Positions 2,786-8,402 of a stretch of 9,005 nucleotides of DNA are shown here, piece after piece. The notes beneath the pieces are model-generated. The model did no database searches and was not told the origin of the DNA. It worked only from the letters and a program-made list of their open reading frames with translations. This DNA is from a virus (taxonomy: Duplodnaviria > Heunggongvirae > Uroviricota > Caudoviricetes). How positions within the stretch are numbered: the stretch's first letter is position 1; the number at the start of each line of letters is the position of its first letter. The DNA is taken from the IMG/VR virus record IMGVR_UViG_3300000301_000068; one strand, written 5' to 3'. The position numbers were made by a program, and so were the translations under genes.

Positions 2786-3498
2786 TCACAGGCCGATATT
2801 GCGGCGGTGTTGCTCCAGCCGGTCGACGCCATTCACCTTCTCAATCATGTTAATGGTGTCGATTTCGACCAGTTCCTTACCGTCCATCGTCAGCCGGAAA
2901 TAGGTGCAGACCACGGAGATTTTCGACTCGGTGTCTTCTCCCTGTTTACCCTCGCCGGTGTCGATTTCTTTCTGACGGCCACGCATGACCACTTCGACGG
3001 CCACCGTTTCGCCGGTATCGTCACGCTGGTAAGAGCCTGCAAAACGAATCGGCACGGCATCCACACCGGTTGCGGCGTAAAGTTCCCAGATAACCGAATC
3101 CGGGAAGCCCCCGAGCNNNNNNNNNNATCTTCTCCCTGTTTCCCCTCGCCGGTGTCGATTTCTTTCTGACGTCCACGCATGACCACCTCGACGGCCACCG
3201 TTTCGCCGGTATCGTCACGCTGGTAAGAACCAGCAAAACGAATCGGCACGGCATCCACACCGGTTGCGGCGTAAAGCTCCCAGATAACCGAATCCGGGAA
3301 GCCCCCGAGCGACCACTCCATTGACAGCGCATCGTCATCAAGGCCGAGGTCTACCGGTGCGCTGCCGTTCATCCCCGCACCGCGATAATTTTCGAGCTTA
3401 CGGGTCAGTTTTGGCAGCGTGACGGACGTTGCAACGCCCTGATAGCTGTAGCCGTTCAGAAAGACATTCATGTATTTGAGTTTGCGCGGCATTGCCAT
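2786..3498 (-). CDS. FII: Tail tube protein (P2 gpFII-like); frame broken in this assembly by a 183-bp duplicated overlap and 10-N gap
   Basis: ATG at 3498-3496 with GGAG 8 nt upstream (MAMPRKLKYMNVFLNGYSYQGVATSVTLPKLTRKLENYRGAGMNGSAPVDLGLDDDALSMEWSLGGFPDSVIWELYAATGVDAVPIRFAGSYQRDDTGETVAVEVVMRGRQKEIDTGEGKQGED...). The C-terminal part ...TESKISVVCTYFRLTMDGKELVEIDTINMIEKVNGVDRLEQHRRNIGL ends at 2786. Removing 2934-3127 restores a single 172-codon ORF, the expected size for a P2-type tube protein. Confidence 0.8.
2934..3310. repeat. Uncollapsed overlap: 2934-3116 and 3128-3310 are about 97% identical (6 differences) across a 10-N gap (3117-3126)
   Basis: Direct comparison of the two 183-nt copies. 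All six differences are third-codon-position synonymous changes in the FII frame (ggt/ggg, ggc/gga, gaa/gag, gca/gct, ggc/ggt, gaa/gag). Both copies encode the identical peptide DAVPIRFAGSYQRDDTGETVAVEVVMRGRQKEIDTGEGKQGED. Confidence 0.75.
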
Positions 3499-4849: not shown

Positions 4850-4854
4850 CCGTT

Positions 4855-4945
4855 TAACTCCGTGGTTAATGGGTGAGTGGTATTTTCAGTTGTGCCGGAG
4901 ATGTCAGGCTATTTGTCCCGGTTGGCTAATCGACAGCACAACCAC
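4855..4945 (-). promoter_or_regulatory. Putative late promoter region for the FI-FII-E-T operon (P2 PF-like position)
   Basis: Positional inference only: about 90 nt between the intrinsic terminator and the FI RBS. It contains a -10-like tgaaaat about 35 nt upstream of the ATG and a TGT...ACA partial dyad (TGT-N16-ACA) further upstream. The exact Ogr-box consensus I recall (TGT-N12-ACA) is not present. Confidence 0.3.
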
Positions 4946-4949
4946 CGGT

Positions 4950-4976
4950 AAAGAAAAGGCGGGCAATCAGCCCGCC
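4950..4976 (-). terminator. Rho-independent terminator ending the tail-fibre operon downstream of G
   Basis: Minus strand reads GGCGGGC-tgatt-GCCCGCC followed by TTTTCTTT, starting 5 nt after the G stop codon. Confidence 0.65.
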
Positions 4977-4981
4977 TGTGT

Positions 4982-5560
4982 TTATTGCGGTAGTTCCGGC
5001 CATTCAATATCCGGGGCATTTTCCGGCTGAACGCGATTCAGTAGCACACGGTATTTTTTCCAGTGTGTCAGGCTTAACTTTTCTTCCTCGGTAGCCATAT
5101 CTAAATCGACAGCATCCTGCAGAGTGGCAATAATTTCACCTGCATATGCAATCTGCTCTTTCTTCTGAGACTCCGCCGCTCTGACAAGCGCATCACGTTC
5201 TGCATTCTCATCATTCACCCACGCATTTCCGTCCCATTTCTGATAATCCCCCTCCGGGGAAATAGCTGTCACGTCTGGAGGTAATACGCCAAGTTCAGAA
5301 ATATAAATGGCTGCTCCTGTTTTCGTTTCGTAGACGGTCTTTCCGCGATGGTCTTCCATCAGTTCCCATTTCATTTCATCTGCATTGAAAACGGCTGCAT
5401 AACCAGCAGGAATATCAGGTGGTGCAATATCTGTACTGTTTGCAGGCAGGCCAGTATACGGCGGAATATATGCATCACTTTCGCCAATAAACTCATTGGT
5501 TCCATTAAGTAAATTGAAAACGCGGATAGTTTGTGCTTCTGCACTCATTCTGAAAGCCAT
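4982..5560 (-). CDS. G: Tail fibre assembly protein (chaperone); lambda Tfa-like N-terminal half in the P2 gpG position
   Basis: 192-aa [57 protein letters not shown]...[38 protein letters not shown]. The C-terminal [11 protein letters not shown]...EWPE motif is characteristic of the Tfa family. Its ATG overlaps the H stop (TAATG). Confidence 0.8.
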
Positions 5561-8235
5561 TATGCAAGCCTCACAATATAGTTAAATGCGATGTTTTTGA
5601 CGGTGTTTTCGGTATTACCCGTAGCATTTACCGTGATGGTGTGCCCGTGCGCACCTAATGCTACAGTGTGTGCATGGGCACCAATACCTACAGTGTGGTT
5701 ATGCTGACCAATATCCACCGTATGGGCGTGCGCTCCGGCTGTGCTGGACACCTGATTGTTTCCTGAAGCCTGTACACGCTGTTTTCCACCGACAGAGTCG
5801 CCGCCATAAACACCACCGACAGTGTGCGTATGATTGCCCGTATTGTTCGTTGATTTTGTGCCATGGTTAAACGTACTGACTGTCTTCGTGCCGTAATCAA
5901 ATGAACTGGTCGTTTTCGTCCCTAAATCCGTATTTGACGCACTGGCGCTGTGAGTATGCGATTTAATCCCGTCCTGTTCCTGTGACAATACAGCACGTCC
6001 ACTGGCGGGNNNNNNNNNNNNNNNNNNNNNNNNNNNNNNNNNNNNNNNNNNNNNNNNNNNNNNNNNNNNNNNNNNNNNNNNNNNNNNNNNNNNNCCCTTG
6101 ATTGTCCAGCCGCGCATATCTGGAATAACACCAGAAGGATAGGCAATAGCCAGTTTAGGATATGCTGCCTTATCAAACGTCTGCCCCTGCATAATTGCAT
6201 AGCCTGCAGGTGGTGTATCTGATGGCCACGGCAGCGGAACACCTGGCGGAAACGCTTCAATATTTGCCGAGCCGTCAAATTTTACGCCGTTAATTGTCCT
6301 TGCCGTTTTCAGCTTTGTTGCTGTAGCCGCATTGCCGGACAGTTCACCAGAAAGGCCTGCACTGAATGTCTGTTTTGCCTCCCATGTCTGGGCTTCGTCG
6401 ATAATTGGTAGCCGACGAATATTGAAGCTACGCTCCCCAGGATTGCCATATAAGCGGACTGTAAAAAAACGATAGTTGGTTTTGTTTGAAGTGCTGCGCC
6501 ATACCTGCATTGAACGGGCGACACCTCCGCCTTCACTGGGGCCAACAGTGATATTTATCAGGTTAGTATCAATGACGCCCCATTCCATCCCATCGGGAAT
6601 ATTGGTCATATCTGAAAGCCTGACAGTTATCATGCTGCCCGGTATAAAGTCGTAGGTCTGCCAGTCCAGATTGGATAACCTGTCGGTAACACCGCCGACA
6701 CCTAATTTAGTGAGTAATGATTTTGAGTTGTATACTTCCGCCCATTCCCCCCAGTCAGTTTCACCGCTGGCGCGGGTTCGCTGAAATGTCCGGTTTTTAT
6801 AGGCATCCGTTGCTGAAACAGTCGTATATGTCTGGATATACGATTCAATATCGCAACGTTTTTTCACCTCGACTACCGAGCCAACAGCAAGATCTTTGTC
6901 GGTAAGTGGTGCATTTGTGGCCTGTTTCGTGACGCTATAAATACCAGGCTTTAAAAGGTCATCAAGATCCCCTGAATAAGTCCATCCCGTGGACTGATAC
7001 CCAACAGCAATCCAGTCCTCCCATTGTGGATTTTCTGCATCCCATGAGGCAGTCAGTCCGCGAATGTACATAGTCCCACTACGGGTGGTGTAACGTTGCA
7101 TCTTCCCATACAGACCGCCTTCAAAGACTTCCAGAATACCCTGCCCAAAACTCCCTTCCTCCGGGAAATGACGGTCAAATGAGGCTATTGATGTACTGCT
7201 ATTGCGCCATATTCCCAGGTGTTCCGCACCACCTAAAGAATTCAGGTCAATTGACGTGCTTAATGGGCGAGTCCCGCTTGTAATAACTCTCCATGCACTC
7301 CATACAGGACTGACAGGGTTCCATTCTGCATCAAGCATCCGAATGTAAATATTACCGGTTCGGGTGGTGTAGCGTTGTGTGCAGTGAAAGCGACCAGCAT
7401 TGAATACTTCCAGAACCCCATTGCCTTTATCTTCAGGGTAACCAGACTCTGGTTTTGCAGTGGATTGTGACGGACATGACCACGTTCCAAGATATTTTTC
7501 TTCTGGGCCATAGGAGTCAAGATTGTCAGTGGTTGGAATCATTCCATTGTGTTTCATAAACGTCAGGCTGGTAACGCCAATATTGTCCAGAAAAGCGCCC
7601 TTATCTGGAATATCGCCACCATTCTGGTCTTTCTGCAGACGTTTCTCAGCATTGTCATAGGCTGCTTTTACTGCCTTTGGCGTTGCCGCCAGCTTTTCAC
7701 TGGTGCTGTTTGTTGCACTGCTTAACTGAGTAAAACCTTTTTCTGTCAGCGTGGCGTCAGGATGGCGGCGGGACTGCTCATGCTCTGCGATTTTGTCATC
7801 GACGTAATCCTGCGTCGCCATCACTGTGCTGGCATCAATACTCAGCTCAACGGACGCCACATTGCTGAGAATAATAACCATGCGGCAGGTCTGCGCACGT
7901 CCGGAGCCTTCAGCCAGTTCTGGCTTATAGCTTTCTGCCATGTTGGATACCGCAATCAGTGTTCCGGCATCGTCATACAGACCAAGCTCACGCATCCAGA
8001 AGCCGCCCACTTCTGGCGGAACAACCAGTTCAGCCACGATATAGTTTTTATTCTTGTTATCCACGCTGACTTTATTCAGGGCGTGACGCCAGACCTCATG
8101 CACCAGTTTCGTCTGACCAGCATCCGGCACCGGCAATTTGCCATTACCGTCACCCACGGCCATTGCAGACAGAGTTACTTTTTTCCCGCCGGGGACAGTG
8201 GCGGCTGCCAGCTTCGCGGCTCCGGCAGTAGTGAT
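5560..8235 (-). CDS. H: Tail fibre protein (P2 gpH-like N-terminus, divergent distal receptor-binding region); 5' end hidden in N-run 8237-8402, internal N-run 6010-6094
   Basis: My translation upstream of the track ORF start gives [56 protein letters not shown]..., matching the conserved gpH N-terminus as I recall it, so the true start lies in the N-run. The ORF stays open to TAA 5562-5560 and ends ...[11 protein letters not shown]. It contains the PDMRG collar-like motif, an internal tandem domain repeat and a His-rich HxH C-terminal region. Confidence 0.85.
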
Positions 8236-8402
8236 ANNNNNNNNNNNNNNNNNNNNNNNNNNNNNNNNNNNNNNNNNNNNNNNNNNNNNNNNNNNNNNNN
8301 NNNNNNNNNNNNNNNNNNNNNNNNNNNNNNNNNNNNNNNNNNNNNNNNNNNNNNNNNNNNNNNNNNNNNNNNNNNNNNNNNNNNNNNNNNNNNNNNNNNN
8401 NN

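Follow-up and report, generated by a model that had tools for sequence, protein, structure and literature searches.

A tail fiber gene, H, of a P2-like (Peduovirus) prophage encodes a series of similar domains in the middle of the fiber. The gene lies on a 9,005-nucleotide (nt) stretch of DNA (IMG/VR virus record IMGVR_UViG_3300000301_000068; hereafter, the window). The original prediction, which was made from this sequence alone, described two consecutive, similar segments of H and read them as a tandem domain duplication in the fiber shaft. We confirm that duplication, but the copies are more numerous than reported, the duplication is ancient, and the domain has already been described. The two segments, which we designate A and B, are very probably the first two of three tandem knobs recognizable by sequence (A, B, and C), which are followed by a fourth knob-like domain (D). 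Residue numbers of H refer to the visible open reading frame (ORF) of 867 amino acids (aa) unless stated otherwise, and the coordinates of all features are collected in Table 1.

Segments A and B are related beyond chance

Both peptides quoted in the original prediction were found exactly in H, at aa 249 to 294 (positions 7282 to 7419, minus strand) and at aa 342 to 387 (positions 7003 to 7140, minus strand). The two segments are 42% identical over 85 aa (aa 209 to 291 versus aa 301 to 384, BLASTP), and their likeness is well beyond chance (Smith-Waterman score of 165 versus 25.4 ± 4.6, z = 30; 0 of 1,000 shuffles reached 165). A comparison of A with B by hhalign gave a probability of 99.9% (E = 4e-32). 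The repeat had been assigned a spacing of 94 aa, or 282 nt, but its measured register is 93 aa, or 279 nt. Likewise, the interval originally given for it (positions 7000 to 7440) is too short, because a third of copy A, on its N-terminal side, lies outside.

The similarity of the two DNA copies that had been pointed out is real but limited to one 38-nt stretch of 82% identity. The peptide that it encodes (QRYTTR.G..YIR) is the most conserved of the unit, and the stretch is the sole trace of the A/B duplication at the DNA level. Across the whole codon-aligned unit, the nucleotide identity of A and B is 50%. Because the identity at third codon positions is 34%, the synonymous sites of A and B are close to saturated.

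The repeat unit matches the knobs of pyocin fibers

A unit of about 85 aa was first described as the tandem domains Knob1 (83 aa) and Knob2 (84 aa, residues 445 to 528) in crystal structures of R1 and R2 pyocin fibers (Buth et al. 2018, PMC6116203). In these homotrimers, a small antiparallel β-sheet from each chain packs against the three-fold axis, and the variable loops lie outside (PMC6116203). The units in H are of comparable size, with hidden Markov model (HMM) envelopes of 87, 88, and 84 aa for A, B, and C, respectively, within the range of about 80 to 90 aa. When a profile of 29 copies of A, B, and C was searched against the sequences of the PDB, it matched the gp47 tail fiber of Pa193 (9B45, E = 8.9e-7) and the fibers of pyocins R1 and R2 (6CL5, E = 4.5e-4; 6CT8, E = 6.1e-4; 6CL6, E = 6.9e-4). 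The pyocin alignment spans chain residues 133 to 207, and, because 6CL6 starts at residue 323 (residues 323 to 691, according to its PDB title), the match falls inside Knob2.

The predicted structure of the region points to the same family. In an AlphaFold2 model of aa 196 to 600 (mean predicted local distance difference test [pLDDT] score of 68), a check that had been proposed together with the original prediction, A to C are predicted to form separate, knob-like β-sheet domains. Their predicted fold, a small antiparallel β-sheet of 5 to 6 strands with long loops, resembles that of 6CL5 and 6CL6. A Foldseek search with this model retrieved 6CL5 (E = 1e-5), 5EFV, 9M7X, and 9EUF; template modeling scores and root mean square deviations of a multi-domain model, taken without domain-by-domain superposition, are uninformative. 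The structural matches overlap the set of knob-bearing structures of Buth et al. (PMC6116203) in 5EFV, 5M9F, 6EU4, and T4 gp34 (5NXF in their set, 5NXH in ours). The location of the units also agrees with that of knobs, as they lie between a PF12571/PF03406 N terminus and a gp37-type tip and are commonly arranged in tandem in related proteins. Finally, many homologs of H are named "pyocin knob domain-containing protein" by NCBI. The "knob" in the catalog of receptor-binding domains of extracellular contractile injection systems is of the adenovirus type, and we set it aside as not relevant.

Several observations weigh against this assignment. Scans of H and of the single copies with Pfam, NCBIfam, and PHROGs gave no named domain model over aa 200 to 600, and the PHROGs matches were to generic "tail fiber protein" families only. 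As neither Pfam nor NCBIfam has a model of the region, the evidence for membership in the knob family comes from a profile that we built and from a predicted structure of the monomer. The sequence matches to pyocin knobs reach significance, but their E-values (about 5e-4) are modest, and the mean pLDDT of the monomer model is 68, although it reaches about 80 in knobs A to C. Domain D enters the array through a medium-confidence model, without a sequence signal.

A divergent third copy and a knob-like domain by predicted fold

For comparisons of sub-profiles, the middle region of H was aligned with 85 homologs. Nearly full-length hhalign matches were obtained between A and C (probability of 91%, E = 1.1e-6) and between B and C (90%, E = 1.8e-6), and we therefore consider C to be a third, divergent copy of the unit. 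The motifs DL(N/D)..L, G.(W/Y), G..EV, Q.YTT, and W..W are common to A, B, and C. Searching with an HMM of the repeat unit had been another proposed check, and Pfam itself has no such model; our iterated HMM, built from 403 copies in related proteins, detects A, B, and C in H and no further copy. In direct pairwise comparison, neither C nor D matched A or B significantly, and C surfaced in profile-profile comparison only.

Domain D has no detectable sequence likeness to A, B, or C, as the segment of aa 481 to 600 gave hhalign probabilities of at most 0.4% and no match to the iterated HMM. A model of aa 470 to 640 (mean pLDDT of 61, with most values in the core of aa 494 to 587 between 66 and 86) had structural matches to 9EUF_5 (8.2), 5EFV (8.2), 6EU4 (6.9), 9B45 (6.6), and 6CU2 (5.7). 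With moderate confidence, we regard D as a fourth knob-like domain by its predicted fold and not as a member of the family by sequence. A database search with D alone returned short Escherichia coli fragments only and added no diversity. H thus has an array of three knobs, which extends over aa 209 to 587 when D is included as a fourth.

The A/B duplication predates the divergence of the fiber family

Across homologs, copies at the same position resemble each other more than copies at different positions (mean identity of 62% for A-A, 66% for B-B, and 48% for C-C versus 41% for A-B and 23 to 24% for A or B with C). In a neighbor-joining tree, the copies form three positional clades with the topology ((A,B),C). 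Because the copies group by position, the A/B duplication predates the divergence of this fiber family; it is an ancient event, which H inherited as part of the cassette.

An exhaustive search of 1.84 billion representative sequences with the three copies of the window as the query yielded 279 matching clusters (E ≤ 1e-3). Among the best 150 of these clusters, one copy per protein was found in 28, two in 57, three in 41, four in 13, five in 7, and six in 3. At least two copies are thus present in 121 of 149 related representatives, at a median spacing of 94 aa. A comparison of copy number among relatives had also been suggested with the original prediction: the number ranges from 1 to 6 in related proteins, but no change is apparent among the closer homologs that were aligned. 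One protein, P0094 (1300 aa), carries the whole A-B-C triple twice (aa 210 to 483 and aa 714 to 985), a higher-order duplication of the cassette.

The A-B-C cassette is present at full length in 224 of the 230 matching phage genome records (tblastn). Its identity is 95 to 99% in four records, which represent P24A7b and L-413C, each with one entry in GenBank and one in RefSeq. Cassettes of about 50% identity are found in other Peduovirus H genes and in genomes of 160 to 170 kb, mostly of the T-even type (T6, RB14, RB33, and others), where the carrier is annotated as the distal subunit of the long tail fiber. No knob is detectable by sequence in P2 gpH or in T4 gp37, gp34, and gp36. Among 5,426 complete E. 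coli genomes, 20 have the exact combination of parts seen in H.

H is a mosaic of three fiber types

By these and further sequence comparisons, H is a mosaic in which the N terminus is of the P2 type, the knob cassette of the T6 type, and the tip of the T4 gp37 type. The first 207 aa of H are of the P2 type and are 84% identical to P2 gpH. The middle of the protein aligns with T6 gp37 (aa 105 to 517 of T6 gp37 versus aa 226 to 638 of H in the numbering of an 873-aa relative; 48.7% identity over 415 aa). Because this alignment reaches aa 638, domain D is included in the T6 cassette. The A-B-C-D cassette is a mobile module common to T6-type gp37 and L-413C gpH.

A conserved motif borders the cassette on its distal side in H and in L-413C gpH, and on its proximal side in T6 gp37 (aa 73 to 95). 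Around this motif, H (aa 626 to 675 in the 873-aa numbering) and T6 gp37 (aa 57 to 106) are 52% identical (BLASTP). L-413C gpH and H part right after the motif, with 95% identity up to aa 642 and different ends thereafter. This switch matches the description of L-413C gpH as a mosaic that PMC7460101 attributes to Garcia et al. 2008. We suggest that the motif may be a recombination joint for the exchange of modules.

The tip is of the T4 gp37 type: 2XGF matches aa 622 to 867 of H (E = 7.8e-64), and the tip is 59% identical to aa 785 to 1026 of T4 gp37. H-x-H motifs occur at least six times in the needle (HTH, HTH, HAH, HNH, HAH, and HGH). The chaperone encoded beside this gp37-type tip, G, is of the lambda Tfa/Caudo_TAP type. 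A run of 85 N at positions 6010 to 6094 interrupts H between the collar and the needle, where a single K joins TIKG to PASGRAVLS both in T4 gp37 and in the protein of E. coli FDAARGOS_1337 (WP_204691545.1), the closest complete relative. This gap may be wrongly sized; if it is not, H has an in-frame insertion of about 26 aa at this site.

Possible roles of the knobs and alternative explanations

The preceding sections establish the repeat, with its copy number, family, fold, age, and distribution. What follows on the geometry of the trimer, on folding, and on the binding of ligands by the knobs is inferred by analogy with the pyocin structures. Each knob would form one globular bead of a trimeric fiber, with the β-sheets of the homotrimer placed against the three-fold axis and the loops directed outward. 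The array would lengthen the fiber, and the hydrophobic cores of the knobs would aid the register and folding of the three chains. The exposed, variable loops could make secondary contacts with sugars of lipopolysaccharide (LPS), and the T4 gp37-type needle tip would make the primary receptor contact. Two patterns fit this model of exposed loops: the predicted strands are more conserved than the loops across homologs (P = 0.004), and variability is greater in knobs A and C than in knobs B and D.

The same two patterns could be read in favor of a different explanation, in which knobs A to C are a functional second receptor-binding site for sugars of the LPS core or O-antigen that helps to set host range, and in which the duplication multiplies binding sites instead of merely adding length. 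Sugar binding has been proposed for pyocin Knob2, and the cassette is found in fibers of phages with different hosts (L-413C of Yersinia pestis, prophages of E. coli, and T6-like phages). Nevertheless, the cassette is 95% identical in the Y. pestis-specific L-413C and in the E. coli prophage, and the tips of the two fibers are wholly different, which places specificity in the tip. Moreover, the host-range determinants of the P2-like phage P88 were mapped to aa 716 to 746, near the C terminus (PMC5285337). Both observations speak against a main role of the knobs in specificity, and we consider a second receptor-binding site of this kind unlikely, albeit the strongest of the alternatives. A bolder proposal, to which we give slightly less credence still, is that the cassette may be an autonomous secondary adhesin module that moves intact between unrelated fiber scaffolds (the P2-type H and the T6-type gp37) and is paired with tips that can be exchanged; variable loops, mainly those of A and C, would bind a conserved sugar of the enterobacterial LPS core and orient the fiber for triggering, as proposed for pyocin Knob2. 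If so, the A/B duplication would have doubled the number of sugar-binding sites.

Two other explanations can be given very little weight. The original prediction itself had named a generic β-helix repeat, present many times along the fiber, as a finding that would overturn it. Short periodic repeats (β-helix or β-spiral) are indeed frequent in tail fibers, and PF03406 and PF03335 repeats occur elsewhere in H. However, the period of the unit is about 93 aa, each unit is predicted to be a separate β-sheet domain that matches solved knobs, the HMM finds only the three copies and none elsewhere in H or in P2 gpH, T4 gp37, and T4 gp34, and A to C do not form a continuous repeat of short period such as a triple β-helix; a generic repeat along the shaft is thus highly improbable. 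We reject as less probable again, to the point of being negligible, a recent duplication or an artifact of draft assembly: near-identical direct repeats do flank the 10-N gaps, with 98% identity over 65 nt at one and 97% over 167 nt at the other, and the window holds nine N runs, but the divergence of A and B given above is too great, no N run lies between them, both copies are present in complete genomes and phages (E. coli FDAARGOS_1337, L-413C, P24A7b, and T6), and A and B form distinct orthologous clades.

The window and gene H

The window is the tail module of the prophage and is read on the minus strand. It contains genes for the tape measure protein (T), E/E', the tube (FII), the sheath (FI), G, H, I, and J, with gene order and product names taken from L-413C and P2. 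The order J-I-H-G is common to the window and L-413C. The host of the prophage is E. coli. As expected of a P2-type gpH, H has an N-terminal tail-collar domain and its gene lies between the baseplate gene I and the gene of a Caudo_TAP chaperone, G, which is 97% identical to G of E. coli FDAARGOS_1337.

The start of H lies about 96 nt upstream of the start of the visible ORF, near position 8259 and inside an N run (positions 8237 to 8402) that masks the first 32 aa, as seen by comparison with L-413C gpH and E. coli WP_204691545.1. H shows 95% identity to aa 33 to 675 of L-413C gpH, and WP_204691545.1 (873 aa) is about 99% identical to H outside the N run. The end of gene I falls in the same N run. 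As a result, H is 32 aa too short in the ORF list, and gene I is joined there to the sequence upstream of it. Within H, Pfam models match four regions only, which are the N-terminal domain, the fiber repeat, the collar (Table 1), and a weak gp37 repeat. The fiber repeat matches by sequence the tail fiber S of phage Mu (structures 8JU3 and 5YVQ).

G and the sheath gene FI lie only about 130 nt apart (positions 4850 to 4981). P2 has fun(Z) at this site, L-413C has a hypothetical ORF of 780 nt, and FDAARGOS_1337 has a hypothetical ORF of 1977 nt on the opposite strand. The cargo of the site therefore differs among these three genomes, and the site is empty in the window.

The window is a draft or scaffolded assembly. 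Its 10-N gaps at positions 2213 to 2222 and 3117 to 3126 are flanked by direct repeats (positions 2148 to 2289 and 2950 to 3310, respectively). The pattern suggests that contig ends that overlap were joined during scaffolding, with spurious frame breaks in T and FII as a result.

Table 1. Features of gene H and its surroundings in the window
Feature	Residues of H	Positions	Strand	Evidence or remark
Tail fiber H	1-867 (visible ORF)	5560..8163	minus	ORF list; Pfam PF12571, PF03406, PF07484
Tail-collar fiber domain, baseplate attachment	1-119	7807..8163	minus	PF12571, E 4.3e-46
Phage tail fiber repeat	138-178	7630..7752	minus	PF03406, E 2.6e-21
Knob domain A	209-295	7279..7539	minus	Knob HMM E 1.5e-25; pLDDT ~80
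Knob domain B	301-388	7000..7263	minus	Knob HMM E 5.7e-24
DNA trace of the A/B duplication		7061..7098 vs 7340-7377		Spacing 279 nt; 38 nt, 82%; blastn E 4e-7
Knob domain C, divergent third copy	395-478	6730..6981	minus	Knob HMM E 5.5e-16
Domain D	494-587	6403..6684	minus	Knob-like, predicted fold only
Conserved junction motif	610-632	6268..6336	minus	Distal border of knob cassette
Phage tail collar domain	641-688	6100..6243	minus	PF07484, E 7.2e-10; T4 gp37 tip 2XGF residues 16-82
T4 gp37-type needle tip, repeated H-x-H	720-867	5563..6006	minus	Presumed primary receptor-binding end
Tail fiber assembly protein G (chaperone)		4982..5560	minus	PF02413 Caudo_TAP, E 3.3e-40; directly downstream of H

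Novelty and implications

The tandem knobs of H are a correct observation of an architecture that is already known and common, because such arrays have been described in pyocins, in phi11, and in Alteromonas phages, and because homologs of H are annotated as knob-containing. Our additions are modest: the copies number three or four instead of two, Pfam and NCBIfam have no model for the unit, and the cassette is common to P2-type H and T6-type gp37. The import beyond annotation is small, in that about 400 unannotated aa of a common E. coli prophage tail fiber are explained as a string of knobs. The boundaries of the knobs, together with the conserved junction motif, are sensible splice points for chimeras of P2, pyocin, and L-413C fibers. 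If the knobs bind LPS, they would offer a second handle on host range.

Comparison with known systems

The fibers of pyocins R1 and R2 (6CL5, 6CL6, and 6CU2; PMC6116203) resemble H in having tandemly arranged units of about 85 aa in the central part of a contractile-tail fiber with a P2-like N terminus. The knob profile of H matches Knob2, and the predicted fold of the H knobs matches as well. Buth et al. read the pyocin knobs as the product of gene duplication (PMC6116203). The pyocins have two knobs, whereas H has three that are related by sequence and a fourth at the level of predicted fold, and A and B of H are 42% identical versus 20% for Knob1 and Knob2. Distal to the knobs, H continues into a T4 gp37-type collar and needle, and the pyocin fiber into an iron-containing shaft and a lectin-like foot.

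Closer relatives are L-413C gpH (AAP04455.1) and the fiber of P24A7b, which share with H the N-terminal 642 aa, including the four knob domains (95% identity at the protein level, 96.6 to 98.6% at the DNA level). Unlike H, L-413C has a P2-like C-terminal end, so that the receptor-binding part is wholly different from the T4 gp37-like tip of H. The T6-type gp37 proteins (T6, RB14, and RB33) have the entire A-B-C-D cassette in the same order as H. In contrast to H, the cassette is located near the N terminus of the distal half-fiber and precedes a long shaft of a different kind. Unlike T6-type gp37, the gp37 of T4 has no knobs detectable by sequence.

In the tail fiber of Alteromonas phage A5, knobs of about 21% sequence similarity have arisen by duplication, and their copy number differs between close relatives (PMC10579305). 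The receptor-binding protein gp45 of Staphylococcus phage phi11 (5EFV) has a "tower" of tandem knob-like domains (PMC6116203), and 5EFV is among the top structural matches of the H models. The fibers and hosts of A5 and phi11 are unrelated to those of H, yet, like the H family, these fibers have knobs in tandem, and the number of knobs varies between related fibers.
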